Below, in pieces: positions 253 through 55,615 of a DNA stretch of 64,000 bases (its first letter is position 1; the number at the start of each line of letters is the position of its first letter). This DNA comes from a virus. Made by a program: the position numbers and the translations under genes. Where the stretch lies: the IMG/VR virus record IMGVR_UViG_3300045988_129435. The stretch is one strand, 5' to 3'. The notes beneath the pieces were generated by a model. That model was not told the DNA's origin. It did no database searches and was given only the letters and a program-made list of their open reading frames with translations.

Positions 253-1503
253 ATGGCAACTATTAAACTTACAATCTTCAAAGCAAAAGTTTTAAAGGAC
301 GGAAGGCATAAGATAAGAATAGCCGTATGTCATAAGAAGGAAACATGTTATATTGTAACACGTTTTATAATCGACAACCTTTCACAATTTAAGGATGGAC
401 AGGTTACAAAACGTCCGGATGCTTCAATTATAAATTCCAAACTAAGAAACATGATGAATGATATGCAGAATAAACTTGATGAAATAAAACATCAGTCTCT
501 TTATTCTTGCAAACAAATCAAAGACATGCTTGTTTCTGACTTAGAAACAAAGGGCAAACAAAACATCACATATCAAAAAGCGTGTTCCATATTTATAAAT
601 GAGTTAAATTCTGAAGGTAGGGAAAGTTATGCAGTATTAATTGAAAGAAGCTGCAGGTACTTCACAGAATTTACAAGAGGAGAAATACCCATGTCAGATA
701 TAACACCCAATATTATTGACGGATTCTCAAGATATCTAAAAACGAAAAAAAATATAGGGAACACAACAATAGGAATGATGATGTCTCAAATAAAAGCGGT
801 GATCAATAGAAATATAAACTCCGGTTCTGTGAGATACGAAATACATCCGTTTGCTTATAAAAAAATCCCTAAATCTCCAATTAAAGAAGTAGATATATCC
901 TTAGAAAGTCTTAATATGATAAGAAATAGTAATCCCAAAGAAAAAAAGTATATTGTGGCAAGGGATGTTTTTATGCTTTCTTTTTATCTCGGTGGAATGA
1001 ACTTAATAGATTTGATGAATACTCGTTTTACTAGCGATAAAGTAGATTATGTAAGAATTAAAACGAAACTTAAAACTGAAACAGAACAACATTGCCTGCT
1101 TCCTATTACTGATCCAGCAAAAGAAATAATAGACAAATGGATAAACAACAAAACAAAGAAATTGGACTTTGGATATAAGTTTTCTTATCATAATTTCTCA
1201 AGATACATATGCAGGTCTCTTTCAGAACTTGCAAAGGAGCTAGGAATAAAGGAAAAAGTTGTATTTTATTCTGCTAGAAAGTCGTTTGCACAATATGCAT
1301 TTGACTTAGGAATACCAGATAACGTGATAGACTACTGCCTTGCTCATTCGGACAAAGGTAGAGGAATTGTCAGGTACTATGCTAAAACGAGATTTAAGCA
1401 AGCAGAAATAGCTATTAAAAGAGTCACTGACTATATCAATAATCCAAGCAAATATCAAGAGTATATCGAGATGAAAGCGGATATAATGTTGATGAAAACA
1501 TAA
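253..1503 (+). CDS. int: Tyrosine recombinase / phage integrase (Bacteroidetes type with N-terminal arm-binding domain)
   Basis: 416 aa. C-terminal ARKSFAQ...LAHSD...RYY fits an R..HxxR..Y catalytic region. The N-terminus MATIKLTIFKAKVLKDGRHKIRI is typical of Bacteroidetes integrase arm domains. The gene sits beside the tRNA-like core. Confidence 0.93.
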   Translation: MATIKLTIFKAKVLKDGRHKIRIAVCHKKETCYIVTRFIIDNLSQFKDGQVTKRPDASIINSKLRNMMNDMQNKLDEIKHQSLYSCKQIKDMLVSDLETKGKQNITYQKACSIFINELNSEGRESYAVLIERSCRYFTEFTRGEIPMSDITPNIIDGFSRYLKTKKNIGNTTIGMMMSQIKAVINRNINSGSVRYEIHPFAYKKIPKSPIKEVDISLESLNMIRNSNPKEKKYIVARDVFMLSFYLGGMNLIDLMNTRFTSDKVDYVRIKTKLKTETEQHCLLPITDPAKEIIDKWINNKTKKLDFGYKFSYHNFSRYICRSLSELAKELGIKEKVVFYSARKSFAQYAFDLGIPDNVIDYCLAHSDKGRGIVRYYAKTRFKQAEIAIKRVTDYINNPSKYQEYIEMKADIMLMKT

Positions 1504-35701: not shown

Positions 35702-36058
35702 TTATTTTTTTCTAAACGGATTGAAATCAGGGTCTTCTCCTTTTTCCGACTCGTAACCGTCTAGAATAGCATTCGTGTTGGCTTCATCCTGCCATCGTTC
35801 AAAAACCACGCGATCGGATTCATCTTGCCGTTCGCGTTCTTCGGTTGTCATGGAATCATGCTTAGTGGCGATGCGTTTATCGATTTCTGCCCATCGTTCC
35901 TTATCCTTCATAGATTCCTCATGCAGTTTAATGAAATCCTCTTCTTGCATCTCCTCAAAGTTTTCAGTTGTATTCCAGTATTCTACACCTTTGTACTGGA
36001 AATGGATAACTCTACCATTTTTACCACTACGTTCTATAACTTTTACACCTTTTATCAT
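35702..36058 (-). CDS. Hypothetical charged protein downstream of the MuF-ART gene
   Basis: 118 aa with a 4-nt overlap onto the stop of 36055-38745. Confidence 0.55.
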   Translation of the reverse strand: MIKGVKVIERSGKNGRVIHFQYKGVEYWNTTENFEEMQEEDFIKLHEESMKDKERWAEIDKRIATKHDSMTTEERERQDESDRVVFERWQDEANTNAILDGYESEKGEDPDFNPFRKK

Positions 36059-44595: not shown

Positions 44596-45360
44596 TTATA
44601 CCTCCTCTTCTTTCAGTTCAAGCAAAAAGGCCTTGCAAATATCAATCATACGTGCAAAAGCCACCGTATTACTTTTTATATTAAATTTTTTCTTAACCTC
44701 TGTAGCTACCTTAATAAATTCTTCATAGGAGCCGACAACTATCGAACTATTTGCAGATATTTTCTGTTTTTCTAGTTCCGCTAGAACAGCTTTGACATCA
44801 TTGCTCCTACTTTCAGTAAACAAGAACTTCATTTCGGTAAGCTCTATATCCCCATCATTAATAGAGACCGTGGGAATCTTATTCGTATCAATAAATTGAA
44901 TGCCGTTAAGACCAGAAAACTCTCTTGCTTCAATAGTGCGCATCTCGCTATAAATTTCCTTAAGCATCTGAGCATCATCTTTGCCTACTAAAGCATTATG
45001 ACTAAGCACATAGGCAATCTGCTTGTCTTTATCAACCTCTTCAATATACAAGATTAAAATATATTCCAACTTAGCTTTAATGGCAGCTTTTAAGTGATGA
45101 TTTCCCGACAAAATGAGATATTTACCGTCATTTCGTTTCATCGCAAACGGGAGCTGAGATAAAAAACCGTCTTCAGCCACATTTGCTGTTAGTCTATCTA
45201 GTGTGCTTTTTTCCATATAGTGAGCATTCTTCTCCAACGGAACACAATCGTTTATAGGGCTTACATATGCTAACTTATATGGAGCAATCAACTTGTTTAC
45301 ATCATCCAGTTTCCCCTGAATAAGATGAACATCTTTCACTTCTTGTATTTTTTCAACCAT
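44596..45360 (-). CDS. ParB-like nuclease domain protein
   Basis: 254 aa. GKYLILSGNHHLKAAIKAKLEYILILYI fits the ParB N-terminal motif, with HH in place of HR. Confidence 0.55.
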   Translation of the reverse strand: MVEKIQEVKDVHLIQGKLDDVNKLIAPYKLAYVSPINDCVPLEKNAHYMEKSTLDRLTANVAEDGFLSQLPFAMKRNDGKYLILSGNHHLKAAIKAKLEYILILYIEEVDKDKQIAYVLSHNALVGKDDAQMLKEIYSEMRTIEAREFSGLNGIQFIDTNKIPTVSINDGDIELTEMKFLFTESRSNDVKAVLAELEKQKISANSSIVVGSYEEFIKVATEVKKKFNIKSNTVAFARMIDICKAFLLELKEEEV

Positions 45361-46637
45361 AATCTATATAAATCCTTTAATGAATCATCTAAAAAATTAG
45401 CAGAATACATTAGCTTGCCTTCATCTCGGCGTTCTAAATCAAATACTCCTCTATATTTCATTGAAATTGGGCTTGTTGTGTACACCGTGGTCTTCACTCC
45501 ATCGTAGTAGTTAGCCATTTTTCGGGCAATCAGCATTCTTACATTATGAGACTTAACAAGCATGATCAATAATTTACTCAATCTCTGAGTATTTGAGTTT
45601 ACAACAAAATCGCTTTGCATAAAAATCTGCTCAAGAGTAGAAAGTTTTTTGCTAAAAGAAGAAAAACCGAACGCTTTTCCATCAGCCATGAATACCAATC
45701 CCAAATCCCCACCAGTTGTATAGTTAACCTTATTTGCCATGTAAAATGCTTTATAGTAGTTCACATCACTAACTGGGCATATCTTTGCTGATATTTCTGT
45801 ACTATCTGTAAATTCATAATCCATAGGCAAAATATGAATACATGATGGCTTTATATTTTTATCGCGTTCAATGTAATAATGCTTATCCCGCTTTACACTA
45901 GAATAAGTGTATATCGGATTCTTACCAGGCCCCAAGTTTATCTTACCAACAAGGAAGTCGTTTATTTCCTGGAAATATCTATCAGAATAGATGATGTTTT
46001 CATCATTCTCAAGAAGACATTTAAACATCACCCCACCTTCTTTGGGGTCAAATACATTATAGGGAGCATGAGCATATCTAAAACTATCTTCTACATAGCT
46101 AAACATCTTCTCATATCCTCCTTTATAAGTGGGAGGAAAAGCAATACCTATCCCCTTACCTTTTTTACTTTTTAGGAAGTCAAAAAAATCGCCATAAAAG
46201 AAACTGCTTATATTAAAATTCAAAGCACCCTTTTCTAATTTCGATATGGTATTGTGATAATAAATGTCAGCCTGCTCTATAAACGAATTGAACATTTCCT
46301 CCTGATAATCATTCTTTCTTTGATGAAAGCCTGATACTCTCATGGCAAACATTACCTGAACAAGATTTTTATATCTTGTATCTTTCCAAGTATCAAAAAC
46401 CAGACGTAATTCAGGATTTACAACTTCAATATCTGTATTTGTGTCAAGCAGCAGATCAGAAATTAGCTTAGAATATAGGCTTACATCATTGGAATGTACA
46501 GTATATCCCATGTTGGACATAATTTTGTCGGTCGTGAAATTACCGGAACATCCGATAAAAACATCTTTCTTTTCTACGCCTTTCATTATATCTTGAAGGA
46601 GCAGTTTTACTTCAGGTGGTGTCGTTCCTTGGGACAT
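45336..46637 (-). CDS. Hypothetical protein, weakly DNA-methyltransferase-like
   Basis: 433 aa. N-terminal VFIGCSGNFT and an FPPTY tract loosely resemble motif I and motif IV (xPPY). The match is not canonical. Confidence 0.3.
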   Translation of the reverse strand: MSQGTTPPEVKLLLQDIMKGVEKKDVFIGCSGNFTTDKIMSNMGYTVHSNDVSLYSKLISDLLLDTNTDIEVVNPELRLVFDTWKDTRYKNLVQVMFAMRVSGFHQRKNDYQEEMFNSFIEQADIYYHNTISKLEKGALNFNISSFFYGDFFDFLKSKKGKGIGIAFPPTYKGGYEKMFSYVEDSFRYAHAPYNVFDPKEGGVMFKCLLENDENIIYSDRYFQEINDFLVGKINLGPGKNPIYTYSSVKRDKHYYIERDKNIKPSCIHILPMDYEFTDSTEISAKICPVSDVNYYKAFYMANKVNYTTGGDLGLVFMADGKAFGFSSFSKKLSTLEQIFMQSDFVVNSNTQRLSKLLIMLVKSHNVRMLIARKMANYYDGVKTTVYTTSPISMKYRGVFDLERRDEGKLMYSANFLDDSLKDLYRLWLKKYKK

Positions 46638-50283: not shown

Positions 50284-50320
50284 TTTCCTTTAAGTTTCTT
50301 CCTTGATTTATTTTGAGTAT

Positions 50321-50662
50321 TTATTCTTCGGGGAATAATCCATCTGAAAATTTTATTAACGCTTCAACTTTTCCCAACTCAATCTCATAAGCATAAAACT
50401 CTTTATCAATAATCTCCATGAGCTCCTGAAAATCATTTGTATTATAATTCTGCTTTATAGATTCAACTACGTTTACTCCATCTGAAAACCAATCGGGATT
50501 AAGCTCTTTTAGCTTTCGCATAGCTGTTGGAATTTGATGTGTATAAAGGTTTTCGGAGAATATGAAATTTAGCATTTCATATACATCGTCCATTTTTGTT
50601 GATAACCTCCCATCTAATATGGTAAAAGCCTTTTTAAGTGATACTCTCATTTTATTTCTCAT
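50321..50662 (-). CDS. Hypothetical protein
   Basis: 113-aa ORF. Confidence 0.5.
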   Translation of the reverse strand: MRNKMRVSLKKAFTILDGRLSTKMDDVYEMLNFIFSENLYTHQIPTAMRKLKELNPDWFSDGVNVVESIKQNYNTNDFQELMEIIDKEFYAYEIELGKVEALIKFSDGLFPEE

Positions 50663-50676
50663 TTCTCTTTAATTCG

Positions 50677-50892
50677 TTACCATTTGTACATTAATTTTTC
50701 TTCAAATTCCGCAATAATACAGTCTGCATCACCGCCATGTACCCAATTCTCTAAAACGGAGGAAAGGATTTCAATTGCTTGTTCTTTCTCCCATTTTGCA
50801 CCAGCTTTAAATCCGGACTTATAAATAACTTGTCCAACTATATTATATCCTTCAGCTCCTTGTTTAGCGGCTTCTTCTAATGTCTGTTTCAT
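50677..50892 (-). CDS. Hypothetical protein
   Basis: 71-aa ORF. Confidence 0.45.
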   Translation of the reverse strand: MKQTLEEAAKQGAEGYNIVGQVIYKSGFKAGAKWEKEQAIEILSSVLENWVHGGDADCIIAEFEEKLMYKW

Positions 50893-50908
50893 AATTTATT
50901 TTTTTTAA

Positions 50909-51139
50909 TTATTCATTTTGAAAATCATCAATCTCATATTCCCATTCCATTGCATCCGCTTCTCGAATATTATCACTAAGCCATTCTTTTGCGTTTTCAA
51001 GCTCATCATCCCATTCAGGTACATCACCACCTTCATCATAGGCTTTAGCTAATTCATTATAAACTTCGTCAGGGACTTCAACATTTCCAAGCCCAACTCG
51101 ATAAGTTACTTTGATTGTTAAATCTTTAATATTCTTCAT
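50909..51139 (-). CDS. Hypothetical acidic protein
   Basis: 76-aa ORF, highly acidic. Confidence 0.45.
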   Translation of the reverse strand: MKNIKDLTIKVTYRVGLGNVEVPDEVYNELAKAYDEGGDVPEWDDELENAKEWLSDNIREADAMEWEYEIDDFQNE

Positions 51140-51432
51140 ATTTCCTCCTCTCTATATTCAAAGGGACCGTCATATCCCATTCCTTTAAGACGTTGTGTAA
51201 ACTCTTCGACTGAATCATTTAATGGGGTGTAGCAATCTAAAACATCCTGGAAAGGTCTAAGATAATGACTCAATACATCTAGAGCTTCTTGTTCACCCTT
51301 CACTTCTCCAAATTCCTTTTTACAAAGGTTTATATAGTCTTCCCTTGTCATGTTAATGTTAGTCACTGTATCAACAATTGTGCTGAAGCGACAGAAAAAA
51401 CCATTGGGCTGTTGAGCTATAAATGATGGCAT
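51136..51432 (-). CDS. Hypothetical protein
   Basis: 98-aa ORF overlapping its neighbours. Confidence 0.5.
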   Translation of the reverse strand: MPSFIAQQPNGFFCRFSTIVDTVTNINMTREDYINLCKKEFGEVKGEQEALDVLSHYLRPFQDVLDCYTPLNDSVEEFTQRLKGMGYDGPFEYREEEI

Positions 51433-51881: not shown

Positions 51882-54107
51882 TCAGACTACGTTAATATTC
51901 ATTTTCTCTTTCGTAAAGGATAGGATGTGCACAATAACATCCACCGTCCATCCGTTGCCTAGCATTCGGTACTGCTGCGTGTCGGAACATTCCCATTTAT
52001 ACCAGGAAGGAATAGTCTGAAGGCGGGCGCATTCGGTAGGAGTCAGACGACGAATCCCTGCAATTCCCGTGAGAGGCGAATCCTCTTCTACAATCATTCC
52101 TACATGAGACGCAATATGCGTATCTGATTTTTGATCGGTATATAAAATTGTACCGTACTCACTTACTCCGGATTTCCTGTAATCCCCTCTATGAGGACGT
52201 ATTCCTCTGTCTGTATACGAAACTCCTTTGACTCTAACATCTTCCACTATCAAATTTTCCTTTCCATCCTTATAGCATCTCGCCAGTAAAGTATTGCTCT
52301 TTAAAGTTGGGAATTGCGCTCCAAACCCGTTCCTTTTTTCCGTATGTCTTTGTTTGTGATTCATTATGTCCGAAATGGCTTTATTACTCATATAATATTT
52401 CTCGTCCACTTCATCTTCAAGGATATCTTTCAACAAAAATCCCTTATCCGCAGGCTGCGGTATGTCAGAATACAAATCATCAAACAAACCATCTCTTTTC
52501 GTCCTAATATTCGTCCAATAGATACGTCTCCGATTCTGTGCCGATACCAAGGCAGAATTGATATGCACGCCATATATCCCAATTGCGTTACTCAGTACCC
52601 GTTCCCACTTCTTCCCCATTTCCACGTTTTCCAGCAAGAACAGCACATTCGGATTATATTTACGGATGTCAGTCAGAATACGCATATACTCCCAAAACAG
52701 ATAAGACTCCCCTTCGAATTGAAAGCCTTCTTCTTTTAATTCCAGGTAGCGATCCAGAGTGTATATCTCTTCTTTATCCACAGTAGACATCCCGACACGT
52801 TTGCCGGCAAAAGAGAATGACTGACAATTATGTACAACGAAATTATTTGCAGTATAAGAATTATCTTCCTCGACTTCAAGATTGTAAACCGTTTGCATTT
52901 TATATGCAGTAAACGACTTTACGTTTGACCACATTTTATCACCTATCGTTTTTGCCTTATCGTATCTCCTTTCTTTTTCTGAAAAGGATATTATATATTG
53001 CTTGTTCTGACGCACTGTTCTTCCTAGAAGCTTTTTGTGTTCCGCAGGTGTGTGTTTACCGACATTTATATGACTATTATAAAGTTTAGAAACAACACGC
53101 TGAATCGTGATTGCCAACATAGGGCTTATTGTCGTTATGTGCCATTCATTGCCATCTATACACCCGTCACCATCAAGAAACCCTTTCAGTACGATTGACA
53201 ACAAATCTTTTGGCAGTCTAACTATCGCTTCCCCAAAATGCTTATTTATAGAACCAATACCACAATACTTTTCTACTAGTTCAACTAACCTTTTATTGCT
53301 GAACACAATGCGATGGACGCTATCTCCGTGCTTATAGCAACTATAATTTAACTTGTCTATATTGGAGCAAAACTGTTCTACTTTTGAATTTCCGATACTT
53401 AGTATAAGCTGCCATGCTCTGCTTCCTTTGTGGTATTCGTCATACCTTTTGTCTTTCCTTGTATGTCCGCCTGCGATATATCTGCCTATTACATAGGCTT
53501 CGTCTTTAGTGATATTGTACGGATTTTCGGATAGGTCATTCTGTATGTTTGAACATATATAATAATCTCCCTTAAGTAACCCAGCGTTCACCCACTCGGC
53601 ATCTCCCAATATGACACGTGCAGACTTTTTCCCATCGTCTTTTCTATAATATTCTTTATATTTCTTCCGGGCGTAAAAAGGATGATTCTTTGTGCAGACA
53701 ACATCAACAAATCCTTGCGCTTTTAACGTATAGGTCATGGCTTCCTTATGACCTATAGCTAAAACAGGCATATATCTGTTATTGTGGGTGAGAACCTTGT
53801 CACCAACTCTTATATCTTCAATGTCTTTATACCCAACATCGGTCAACACTTTGACCCCTGCCGCAAAGCAAGGACTGCCCCCTATCAACAGGTCAATTGG
53901 TTCTAACTTAGACACATCTACCTGAGTGACATCTCCGAGCTGGATTGTATCCGGGAAATTGAGCTGCGTCTGCTTGATGGCATGCTTGTCTATCTCAGAA
54001 GCGTAATACTTTCCCGGGATAATGCCAAGCTGCTTCAAAGCAATCTGACCGCAGGACATGCCATCGAATAAACTTAGTACATTCATCTCTGATTTGTTAT
54101 ACTCCAA
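51882..54107 (-). CDS. DNA (cytosine-5)-methyltransferase interrupted by an intein
   Basis: Motif I LSLFDGMSCG, motif IV GGSP[intein]CQSFSFAGK, motif VI FLLENV, motif VIII QNRRRIYW, motif X LGNGWTV. Confidence 0.9.
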   Translation of the reverse strand: MEYNKSEMNVLSLFDGMSCGQIALKQLGIIPGKYYASEIDKHAIKQTQLNFPDTIQLGDVTQVDVSKLEPIDLLIGGSPCFAAGVKVLTDVGYKDIEDIRVGDKVLTHNNRYMPVLAIGHKEAMTYTLKAQGFVDVVCTKNHPFYARKKYKEYYRKDDGKKSARVILGDAEWVNAGLLKGDYYICSNIQNDLSENPYNITKDEAYVIGRYIAGGHTRKDKRYDEYHKGSRAWQLILSIGNSKVEQFCSNIDKLNYSCYKHGDSVHRIVFSNKRLVELVEKYCGIGSINKHFGEAIVRLPKDLLSIVLKGFLDGDGCIDGNEWHITTISPMLAITIQRVVSKLYNSHINVGKHTPAEHKKLLGRTVRQNKQYIISFSEKERRYDKAKTIGDKMWSNVKSFTAYKMQTVYNLEVEEDNSYTANNFVVHNCQSFSFAGKRVGMSTVDKEEIYTLDRYLELKEEGFQFEGESYLFWEYMRILTDIRKYNPNVLFLLENVEMGKKWERVLSNAIGIYGVHINSALVSAQNRRRIYWTNIRTKRDGLFDDLYSDIPQPADKGFLLKDILEDEVDEKYYMSNKAISDIMNHKQRHTEKRNGFGAQFPTLKSNTLLARCYKDGKENLIVEDVRVKGVSYTDRGIRPHRGDYRKSGVSEYGTILYTDQKSDTHIASHVGMIVEEDSPLTGIAGIRRLTPTECARLQTIPSWYKWECSDTQQYRMLGNGWTVDVIVHILSFTKEKMNINVV
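52827..53870 (-). mobile_element. Intein (348 aa) with a LAGLIDADG domain inserted at the PCQ catalytic motif of the C5-methyltransferase
   Basis: Residues 80-427: block A CFAAGVKVLTDVGY, block B TKNH, LAGLIDADG-like VIGRYIAGGH and LKGFLDGDGCIDG, block F VYNLEVEEDNSYTA, end VVHN then +1 Cys of CQSFS. Confidence 0.88.
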
Positions 54108-54528
54108 TTATCTTATCGTTGATACGAAATATGTTGTCACTCACAAAATCGTATATTTTATACATCAGTTCTGGTTCTTGCTTTTCGGGAGAATAAACCA
54201 TTACCCTTTTACCTGCACCTTTCATCCATCCGGCTTCTGTGTTGGCCGAGCGGCCACAAGGAAGAACCATAACGCAGACATCAGCCCACTGCATACCATT
54301 AAAATCTGAATCAAAACCTTTCTGCGCAATTGGGTGATTAAGTGCTTCTTGATATTGTTCAGTTGTCCAGTTCTGCCAATCAGGGTCTATATCAGACCAT
54401 TGGAAACCACCATTCCCATGTGGGGGATTCTTAAAATCATAGACCTCATGTCCTAAATCACGGAGAATAGCTACAACGTCCTGTTGAAATACATTTCTCC
54501 AACTACTTGCTACATAAATCTTTGCCAT
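54097..54528 (-). CDS. Hypothetical protein, possibly nucleoside 2-deoxyribosyltransferase-like
   Basis: 143 aa. The N-terminus MAKIYVASSWRN resembles a Rossmann-like start. The assignment is weak. Confidence 0.3.
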   Translation of the reverse strand: MAKIYVASSWRNVFQQDVVAILRDLGHEVYDFKNPPHGNGGFQWSDIDPDWQNWTTEQYQEALNHPIAQKGFDSDFNGMQWADVCVMVLPCGRSANTEAGWMKGAGKRVMVYSPEKQEPELMYKIYDFVSDNIFRINDKIIGV

Positions 54529-54808: not shown

Positions 54809-55615
54809 TTACCTTATTCTATTTAAAATCTCTTTCTGTATAACCTCTTTCGCATTAAAATGAAAAAGTCCCTTTTTCAAACGTCTAACATCCTGCATCG
54901 GCATTTCATTGATGTAGAAGTAAAAGGATTCATACGGATCACTGAAATTCTTAGCAAGAGCATTGTTAGGTTTATTATTCATATATCGTTCAATGGCGAC
55001 AATCATTCTTCGGGCATAACCAGGAAACATCTTAAATTCTGCCTGCATCTGCTTGCAACCGGCAAGGGGACAACCAATACAGCCATGACGGGAAAGATTA
55101 TAGGGCTTATCGTAATACTTGGAATATGGAAGACCATTTTTACGAATGTAGTTCCATACATCGGCTTCTGACCAGTTAAGGATCGGGAGAATATGCTTCG
55201 CACCTTTCATCCATCTGCGTGCATCACATTGCTCCGGTTCATACGACGCCCTCGATTGGCTTTCTTCTGCCCTCATTCCCTCTATTGTACGCTGACCGAT
55301 ACCGTATTGCTCCTTCAACTTTTCACAGCAAAAACGCCTCATTCTGCCGGGTAATCCTTTATTTTCAACCAACTGAAAAAATGATTTCTTTGGGTGAAGT
55401 ATCTGAACCTGTGAATAGTTCTTCTTTATGAAACTGATTGTACCAGGTGGATCAACTGTCGTATTTGCGTAAGACGCATTATACTTTATACCAGAACGCT
55501 CTGCAAGGTCAAGAATTACAACACTATCTTTGCCGCCAGAAAAGCCTAAACACATCGGATCGTCACGTTCCATGCTGCGAAGAAAGTCGATTGCTTGCTG
55601 CTCCTTTTTATTCAT
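54809..55615 (-). CDS. Phosphoadenosine-phosphosulfate (PAPS) reductase family / PP-loop protein
   Basis: 268 aa with PP-loop FSGGKDS, RRFCCEKLK, GMRAEESQSR and C-terminal RHGCIGCPLA. Confidence 0.82.
   Translation of the reverse strand: MNKKEQQAIDFLRSMERDDPMCLGFSGGKDSVVILDLAERSGIKYNASYANTTVDPPGTISFIKKNYSQVQILHPKKSFFQLVENKGLPGRMRRFCCEKLKEQYGIGQRTIEGMRAEESQSRASYEPEQCDARRWMKGAKHILPILNWSEADVWNYIRKNGLPYSKYYDKPYNLSRHGCIGCPLAGCKQMQAEFKMFPGYARRMIVAIERYMNNKPNNALAKNFSDPYESFYFYINEMPMQDVRRLKKGLFHFNAKEVIQKEILNRIR

Follow-up and report, generated by a model that had tools for sequence, protein, structure and literature searches.

The insert that interrupts the C5-cytosine DNA methyltransferase gene of this phage is, with a probability that we put at roughly 0.8, a canonical class-1 intein with a nested two-motif LAGLIDADG endonuclease. 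It belongs to a widespread selfish family residing at the P/C site (a slash marks splice junctions throughout), and its homing ability has probably been lost. The gene lies in a viral sequence of 64,000 nucleotides (IMG/VR record IMGVR_UViG_3300045988_129435), which as a whole is called the window here. The evidence fits a selfish homing element aimed at a highly conserved active-site sequence better than a regulator.

The interrupted methyltransferase and its intein

All features are compiled in Table 1. Precursor residues 80-427 correspond exactly to positions 52827-53870, in the order GGSP/CFAAGVKVLT…CTKNH…YVIGRYIAGGHT…LKGFLDGDGCI…VYNLEVEEDNSYTANNFVVHN/CQSFSFAGK. Thus both the coordinates and the motifs of the 348-residue intein that had been proposed from the bare sequence are exact, with profile searches (Pfam, NCBIfam) and structure prediction in agreement and the matches well beyond chance.

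Table 1. Positions of the methyltransferase gene, its intein and the second intein in the window
Feature	Position	Strand	Description
Intein-containing C5-cytosine DNA methyltransferase precursor ORF	51882..54107	minus	741 aa from TTG start
N-extein	53871..54086	minus	motif I (LFDGMSCG) to GGSP, the first half of motif IV; aligned with DNMT3A (residues 6-89) and with SJC10 and BT498P1
Intein, 348 aa, class-1	52827..53870	minus	Cys1; block B T60-x-x-H63; blocks F/G VYNLEVEEDNSYTANNFVVHN; last residue Asn348
LAGLIDADG homing-endonuclease domain within the intein	52971..53546	minus	about residues 109-300; approximate bounds from the secondary structure of the model
LAGLIDADG motif 1 (EAYVIGRYIAGGH)	53463..53501	minus	codon 53469-53471 is GGC (Gly134); the catalytic Asp of relatives is GAC
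LAGLIDADG motif 2 (IVLKGFLDGDGCI)	53157..53195	minus	catalytic Asp235 intact
Cys+1 codon	52824..52826	minus	+1 splice nucleophile of the intein and catalytic Cys of methyltransferase motif IV (PCQ)
Remaining C-extein	51885..52823	minus	motif VI (LLENV), motif VIII (AQNRRRIYW), target-recognition region, motif IX (IRRLTPTECARLQ), motif X (LGNGW)
MuF intein, 339 aa	36895..37911	minus	within the MuF-like head-morphogenesis ORF 36055-38745; junctions WHPN/CYSDD…FWGSN/CRCYK

Judged from its sequence the host gene encodes an orphan C5-cytosine methyltransferase of a phage or prophage. Its true start is likely the ATG at 54086, giving 734 residues. This codon is favoured because orthologues begin with MNVLSLFDG, and the gene call on the nearly identical contig L008 also starts there. 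Motifs I, IV, VI, VIII, IX and X are all present in order, with motif IV reading GGSP-C once spliced. The unspliced protein matches PF00145 in two separate stretches (1.4e-36), whereas the spliced extein matches in a single one that spans positions 1-319 of the 324 in the profile (E = 5e-43); against TIGR00675 the precursor reaches 2e-36. The intein cuts motif IV between proline and cysteine (GGSP/C…HN/CQSF). Alignment with intein-free C5 enzymes places the insertion point inside this motif: spliced GGSPCQSF is collinear with GGSPC, the catalytic PC motif of DNMT3A, and the orthologues read GGSP/CQSFSFAGK. The original prediction that the +1 nucleophile is the catalytic cysteine of motif IV is thereby borne out.

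The target-recognition region is modular and recombining. Its module is unlike that of most relatives but occurs in the intein-free homologue P0037, and given this unusual module the activity of the enzyme after splicing is assumed. That the methyltransferase is crippled by a 49-codon deletion in this region as compared with L008 was rejected, as a second contig (L009) has the same arrangement and P0037 the same module. The source phage is temperate and of the Bacteroides type.

On the intein, Hint_2 exceeds its Pfam cut-off (1.6e-9), while Intein_splicing and LAGLIDADG_3 (2.8e-4) fall slightly under theirs; the NCBIfam model TIGR01443 (intein_Cterm) exceeds its cut-off at the C-terminal junction VVHN/C. 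In an alignment of 13 inteins C1, T60, H63, D235, K210 and N348 are invariant, and the window copy keeps all splicing residues, i.e. C1, T60, H63, H347, N348 and C+1. The AlphaFold (AF2) model is of high confidence (pLDDT 93.1, pTM 0.89) and its best Foldseek matches in the PDB are the bifunctional inteins PI-SceI (1ef0, E = 1.1e-17), TliVMA (TM 0.67), PI-PfuI and PI-PkoII, with further endonuclease matches to I-DmoI, I-OnuI and I-AniI at about 1e-5. The two-domain fold, Cys1, TxxH and HN followed by Cys+1 are common to the window intein and the PI-SceI group, but identity is only 12-16%, the window intein is smaller and shows no evident extra DNA-recognition region, and in contrast with this group it has Asn at both F:4 and F:13, and the Asp of motif 1 is lost. 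The GC content amounts to 37.7% in the intein, 38.0% in the window and 42-46% in the exteins. A recent foreign origin of the intein deduced from composition was dropped since these values are uninformative.

Empty sites and related inteins

The Bacteroides phages SJC10 (gp39) and BT498P1 (Dmt) possess GGSP/CQSFSFAGK with a clean gap of 348 residues at the intein position, the intein-free junction being …GGCAGTCCT/TGTCAGTCATTC…. None of the best 120 homologues of the spliced extein contains an intein, so the distribution is sporadic, as expected for a homing element.

Related inteins were found by tblastn with E values down to 6e-43. Nearly all of 36 metagenomic relatives show GGSP/C…N/C junctions, among them mini-inteins of 141-173 residues, and in IMG/VR the same P/C site is used by 56 of the best 79 relatives (more than 400 relatives overall). 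The proline at position −1 is invariant across more than 50 independent alleles. Elsewhere among phages, relatives of this intein interrupt NrdD and ThyX genes. Scanning genome contigs with the single protein gave no match, and with a four-sequence alignment distant prophage relatives only.

Four described phages carry an intein at the identical site (…G-x-P/C…HN/C-Q-x-x-S), namely the jumbo Escherichia phage A4 (Asteriusvirus, gp120), the P1-like RCS47 (Dmt), Mannheimia phage vB_MhS_587AP2 and Lactobacillus phage Nyseid. With 312-346 residues and 27-33% identity to the window intein they exhibit the same Hint and double-LAGLIDADG layout and share the F/G block VYNxEV…(S/T)Y…N..VVHN, but they differ in phage lineage, host and extein subfamily and have kept the Asp of motif 1. 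In the feature tables examined for these records the intein is not annotated as such. In annotation the gene ought to be treated as one C5-methyltransferase that contains an intein; such genes are split or wrongly labelled in several GenBank records, e.g. that of Mannheimia 587AP2.

Public phage sequences already show this insertion frequently, so the window intein counts as an ordinary case of a known kind. The novelty implied by the original prediction is overstated, as related inteins fill the same site in many phage genomes and viral contigs and C-5 methylases are listed among intein hosts (bioRxiv 10.1101/2025.01.02.630785). This 2025 survey names N6/N4 (PF01555) and C-5 (IPR001525) methylases as well as the minor capsid protein (IPR006528) as intein-host phage genes, and methylase inteins of actinobacteriophages are known from Kelley et al. 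2016 (PMC5050341). The mycobacteriophage relatives reside in N6_N4-type methylases and have another junction (…MHV/C…KN/CPLQFD), unlike the C5 site of the window. Our literature search gave no specific account of an intein at the catalytic cysteine of a C5-methyltransferase, and the accessible parts of PMC5050341 and bioRxiv 10.1101/2025.01.02.630785 do not discuss the site within motif IV of C5 methyltransferases.

State of the endonuclease

In the AF2 model the two LAGLIDADG helices comprise residues 122-134 and 221-235. The helix of motif 2 ends with the acidic residue D235, and at the corresponding end of motif 1 there is G134. Of the 13 aligned inteins the window copy alone has Gly at position 134, the other 12 having Asp. 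Compared with the intein of contig L008, which has D134, the responsible nucleotide is the sole substitution over 1044 nt. L008 itself carries a frameshifting deletion of 80 nt in its intein, while contig L009, 99.89% identical to the window, has an intact ORF and D134. Exchange of the equivalent Asp kills cleavage in characterised LAGLIDADG enzymes (PI-SceI D218/D326, I-CreI D20). Since the catalytic Asp of motif 1 is replaced, homing has probably been lost: the endonuclease of the window copy probably cannot home any more, with all splicing residues retained. The window copy would then stand at the stage of the homing cycle in which the endonuclease decays, and intact L009, the window with D134G and L008 with its deletion give a compact natural snapshot of endonuclease decay in one gut-phage lineage.

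That the intein is still fully homing-competent, with Gly134 being tolerated or the enzyme acting as a nickase and the element spreading to intein-free alleles during co-infection, is unlikely. Such activity would be consistent with the intact second active site (D235, K210) and overall fold, and related Bacteroides phages do have coexisting intein-free target alleles whose junction sequence is conserved. Against it stand the Asp that both nearly identical contigs and all other aligned inteins maintain at position 134 and the known effect of its loss in characterised enzymes.

Proposed splicing at an invariant proline

In the proposed pathway the 741-residue precursor would be translated and undergo an N-S acyl shift at Cys1, after which the N-extein would be passed to Cys+1, the methyltransferase's own catalytic thiol. 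Cyclisation of Asn348 would free the intein and an S-N shift would rebuild GGSP-CQSF, giving an active enzyme of about 386 residues. Two properties count against explaining this by canonical splicing. Block F (VYNLEVEEDNSY) is non-canonical with Asn instead of Asp at F:4 and Asn instead of His at F:13 (numbering according to the Mtu RecA intein), and residue −1 is proline. The residues at F:4 and F:13 are accessory and membership in class 1 is possible without them. Among the 13 aligned inteins F:4 is Asn in 12, and F:13 is His in some.

From these two properties it could be argued that the insertion is dead for splicing and that the methyltransferase gene is inactivated and drifting towards a pseudogene. 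The already mutated endonuclease, the frameshifting deletion in the nearly identical L008 and the possible dispensability of an orphan methyltransferase would fit such decay. Nevertheless, we regard it as very unlikely. The 2.2-kb ORF is unbroken and retains every methyltransferase motif and primary splicing residue, and the 99.9% identical L009 is intact, too. Asn at F:4 is found in almost the whole family and is kept even in mini-inteins that consist of the splicing domain only, which implies selection for splicing, and the −1 proline is constant in the family.

Equally improbable at the moment appears the idea that the inteins of motif IV form a natural family adapted to the invariant −1 proline and to a catalytic thiol as +1 residue, with splicing that is maybe slow or redox-sensitive. 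If this were true, the phage would gain a delay or gate of DNA methylation and biotechnology an intein scaffold tolerating proline at −1. Active-site inteins with a functional +1 residue are found in ribonucleotide reductase, P-loops and polymerase motifs, and as a general rule inteins target by homing those catalytic sequences that are most conserved. In contrast with these other active-site inteins, the common residue in the window is the covalent-catalysis nucleophile of the methyltransferase and residue −1 an invariant proline. As inteins were previously reported to be non-functional with Pro at −1 (PMC6486613), the family-wide −1 proline holds some interest for applications. Beyond that nothing is conceptually new, active-site inteins in phage DNA-metabolism enzymes, including methylases, being well known.

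Conditional splicing has been documented for the RadA, DnaB and PolII inteins. That it serves as a switch here, with redox state (e.g. a disulfide between Cys1 and Cys+1), temperature or slow kinetics gating methylation of phage DNA, is extremely unlikely: the adjacent nucleophiles Cys1 and Cys+1, a catalytic loop that cannot be intact before splicing, a −1 proline and block F that could slow the reaction and the precedents in other inteins would agree with it, but no regulation-specific feature was found, the closest orthologues (the best 120 homologues of the spliced extein) do without the intein, the presence at this site of mini-inteins, of a broken copy and of one with a point-mutated endonuclease reflects the normal selfish cycle of gain, decay and loss, and the likely host, deduced from the matches to Bacteroides phages, is anaerobic with a reducing cytoplasm. 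The gating of methylation by redox state or temperature that was suggested originally is thus speculation, as no sequence feature sets this intein apart from an ordinary selfish one.

A second intein in the window

The original prediction of two distinct homing inteins in this phage holds as far as a second, unrelated intein in the MuF-like protein is concerned (about 21% identity to the methyltransferase intein), but homing is doubtful for the methyltransferase copy because of G134. A search of the window ORFs with the methyltransferase intein (phmmer and the regular expression HN[CST]) returned nothing but this intein itself; the MuF intein was missed owing to its SN/C end and the low identity and was recognised from reading the ORF. 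Pfam yields for it a weak match to LAGLIDADG_3 alone. Tblastn nevertheless confirms it as a real intein, unrelated to that of the methyltransferase. The MuF-like protein matches the head morphogenesis family phrog_7625 in two stretches, the relatives of its intein detected by tblastn are inteins in other phage proteins, and the spliced MuF protein aligns in tblastn with intein-free homologues unbroken over the junction.

The intein of the C5-cytosine methyltransferase

The C5-cytosine methyltransferase is interrupted by a class-1 intein that houses a LAGLIDADG homing endonuclease of the double-motif type and has the catalytic cysteine of the methyltransferase as its +1 nucleophile. This insert reads CFAAGVKVLT…CTKNH…YVIGRYIAGGHT…LKGFLDGDGCI…VYNLEVEEDNSYTANNFVVHN between GGSP upstream and CQSFSFAGK downstream. 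This assignment follows from profile matches, spliced alignment, empty-site orthologues and fold. In the precursor the Pfam match to PF00145 (C5 DNA methylase) is broken into two stretches with Hint_2 (1.6e-9, above cut-off), Intein_splicing and LAGLIDADG_3 between them; in NCBIfam TIGR00675 (dcm) and TIGR01443 (intein C-terminal splicing region) are each above cut-off. The spliced extein, from which the 348 intein residues are removed, matches PF00145 in a single stretch (profile positions 1-319 of 324, E = 5e-43). Its GGSPCQSF lines up with the catalytic motif GGSPC of DNMT3A, and M.HhaI is matched as well. Orthologues from the Bacteroides phages SJC10 (gp39) and BT498P1 (Dmt) are intein-free and read GGSP↓CQSFSFAGK (↓, junction) with a clean 348-residue gap at the insertion point; identity of the C-extein-side DNA with SJC10 is high (259/300 nt). 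The AlphaFold2 model, built with 23 homologues as input, is confident (pLDDT 93.1, pTM 0.89) and comprises a β-rich splicing domain broken by an α/β domain, with two long helices ending at residues 134 and 235. Foldseek retrieved first the bifunctional inteins PI-SceI (E = 1e-17), TliVMA, PI-PfuI and PI-PkoII and then free LAGLIDADG enzymes, e.g. I-DmoI. The original prediction of an intein at the motif IV cysteine is thus borne out by profiles, DNMT3A alignment and empty sites, and its coordinates were exact; the strand is minus.

Features of the window discussed in the text (↓, junction)
Feature	Position	Strand	Remark
Integrase	253-1503		
MuF-like head-morphogenesis ORF	36055-38745	minus	
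Second intein	36895-37911	minus	339 aa; WHPN↓C…GSN↓CRC; two LAGLIDADG-like motifs
ParB-like nuclease-domain and DAM-like-phage1+GNAT-phage-like proteins	44596-46637	minus	farther from methyltransferase
Four small ORFs (~1.1 kb)	50292-51430	minus	missing from L009
C5-cytosine methyltransferase precursor ORF	51882..54107	minus	741 aa, TTG start as listed
Target-recognition region	~52041-52200	minus	
Methyltransferase intein	52827-53870	minus	precursor residues 80-427
Nucleoside deoxyribosyltransferase	54097-54528	minus	methyltransferase neighbour
PAPS-reductase-like PP-loop protein	54809-55615	minus	methyltransferase neighbour

Since the orthologues and a near-identical contig start with MNVLSLFDG, the ATG at 54086 is likely the true start rather than the TTG. 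The window belongs to a temperate phage or prophage of siphovirus-like type and, besides the integrase, encodes tape-measure protein, portal, large terminase, major head protein and replication-initiation protein. Its methyltransferase, whose nearest cultured relatives are found in Bacteroides thetaiotaomicron phages, lies in a small neighbourhood of nucleotide and DNA-modification genes.

Splicing competence and the MuF intein

The primary nucleophiles are of the canonical kind, as is block B. Block F is atypical with Asn at F:4 (family-wide) and at F:13. Atypical is also the −1 residue, which is proline in essentially all members of the motif IV family because the host motif is PC. Natural and engineered inteins are reported to have failed previously with proline at this position (PMC6486613). 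The persistence of intact exteins, together with mini-inteins that retain the splicing domain alone, suggests that motif IV inteins do splice; if so, they would be natural adaptations to a context that is usually unfavourable, which is the one modestly interesting aspect here.

That the unspliced precursor is unable to methylate is a reasonable inference, from which the original prediction went on to conditional splicing as a regulator of methylation. Such regulation is very improbable and its proposed significance unsupported, as nothing points to regulation of splicing, functional close orthologues lack the intein, the element follows selfish-element dynamics and the probable host is an anaerobe.

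The claim of a second, distinct intein in the MuF-like protein was correct: relatives of this insert are inteins in other phage proteins, the spliced protein aligns in one piece over the junction with intein-free homologues (49% and 35% identity), and both inteins share only ~21% identity. The MuF-like protein itself appears to be an intein-interrupted MuF-toxin/ART fusion, since its C-terminal part matches a Bxa-type ADP-ribosyltransferase PHROG (phrog_16625).

Endonuclease state in near-identical alleles

Two near-identical contigs were compared, L009 (IMG/VR UViG 3300014798_000036) and L008 (Logan contig, ERR11457807). L009 is 99.89% identical to window 54171-51431 and its intein is intact; it lacks the block of four small ORFs and is otherwise 98-99.9% identical. 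Within the 1044-nt intein the sole nucleotide substitution between the window and both contigs replaces the catalytic Asp134 of LAGLIDADG motif 1 by Gly: codon 53469-53471 (minus) is GGC in the window and GAC in L008, and L009 likewise has Asp134. An alignment of 13 inteins shows Asp134 in all but the window, while Asp235, Lys210, C1, T60, H63 and N348 are invariant. Residue 134 is the end of the first LAGLIDADG helix in the model, and PI-SceI and I-CreI both require the equivalent Asp in order to cleave. For these reasons the endonuclease of the window copy is probably inactive, or a nickase at best, with the splicing residues untouched.

In L008 (493-2764) an 80-nt frameshifting deletion in the intein (corresponding to window 53071-52992) splits the methyltransferase into two called ORFs; this could be a genuine decay allele or else an artefact of assembly. 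As judged from sequence comparison, the D134G copy, taken with the mini-inteins and the disrupted copy in L008, represents the classic cycle of invasion, endonuclease decay and loss.

Distribution of the motif IV insertion

Insertion at the P↓C site of methyltransferases is very common in sequence databases. Searching GenBank phages with the intein (tblastn) yielded full-length relatives (27-33% identity) within cytosine methyltransferases of Escherichia jumbo phages (A4 and others), Mannheimia phage 587AP2, Lactobacillus phage Nyseid and P1-like phages (RCS47 Dmt), each at the identical site …P↓C…VVHN↓CQ…. Mycobacteriophage matches are found in N6/N4-type methylases at a junction other than that of the methyltransferase intein of the window, and correspond to the inteins that Kelley et al. 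2016 (PMC5050341) described in DNMT. A collection of 5.8 billion proteins contains 36 relatives (best 68% identity). Almost all of them are PF00145 proteins in which the junctions read GGSP↓C…N↓C(Q/T/N)xxS, and among the 36 are mini-inteins of 141-173 aa whose endonuclease has been lost. Relatives are encoded by 407 stretches in IMG/VR; of the best 79 of these, 56, giant-virus MAGs among them, show the site pattern x-P↓C…N↓C-[QT]-x-x-S. Prophage copies are present in assemblies from Blautia, Eubacteriales, Campylobacterota and Tannerellaceae. None of the 120 best-scoring homologues found with the spliced extein carries an intein, a sporadic pattern that would be expected of a homing element.

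According to a 2025 survey (bioRxiv 10.1101/2025.01.02.630785), the hosts of actinobacteriophage inteins include C-5 methylases (IPR001525) and minor capsid protein (IPR006528). Our literature search found no paper with explicit treatment of the motif IV catalytic-cysteine site. The window's methyltransferase intein is a further member of an allele family that is already populous though little discussed.

In three metagenomic proteins (P0025, P0029, P0030), which are C5-methyltransferases with a circular permutation, motifs IX-X precede motif I; a whole mini-intein occupies the PC site of P0029 and P0030, and in the fragment P0025 the N-terminal junction alone is visible at the same site. The record of Mannheimia phage vB_MhS_587AP2 (KP137435.1 27007-28843) divides the intein-containing methyltransferase between two CDSs that overlap, one labelled hypothetical protein and the other partial methyltransferase; the frame past HN↓CQ reaches a stop, reflecting either a disrupted C-extein or mis-annotation.

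Comparison of the window, L008 and the proteins P0037, P0048, P0055 and P0074 shows that the target-recognition region in this family of methyltransferases is built of modules, of which at least four are interchangeable; it is reminiscent of multispecific Bacillus phage methyltransferases. L008 contains an additional 147-nt module (2428-2574) with a HhaI-like QQDRIY…APAL motif, absent in the window and L009. Recombination at motif IX is suggested by the duplication of IRRL(I/T)PTEC at the module joint of P0037.
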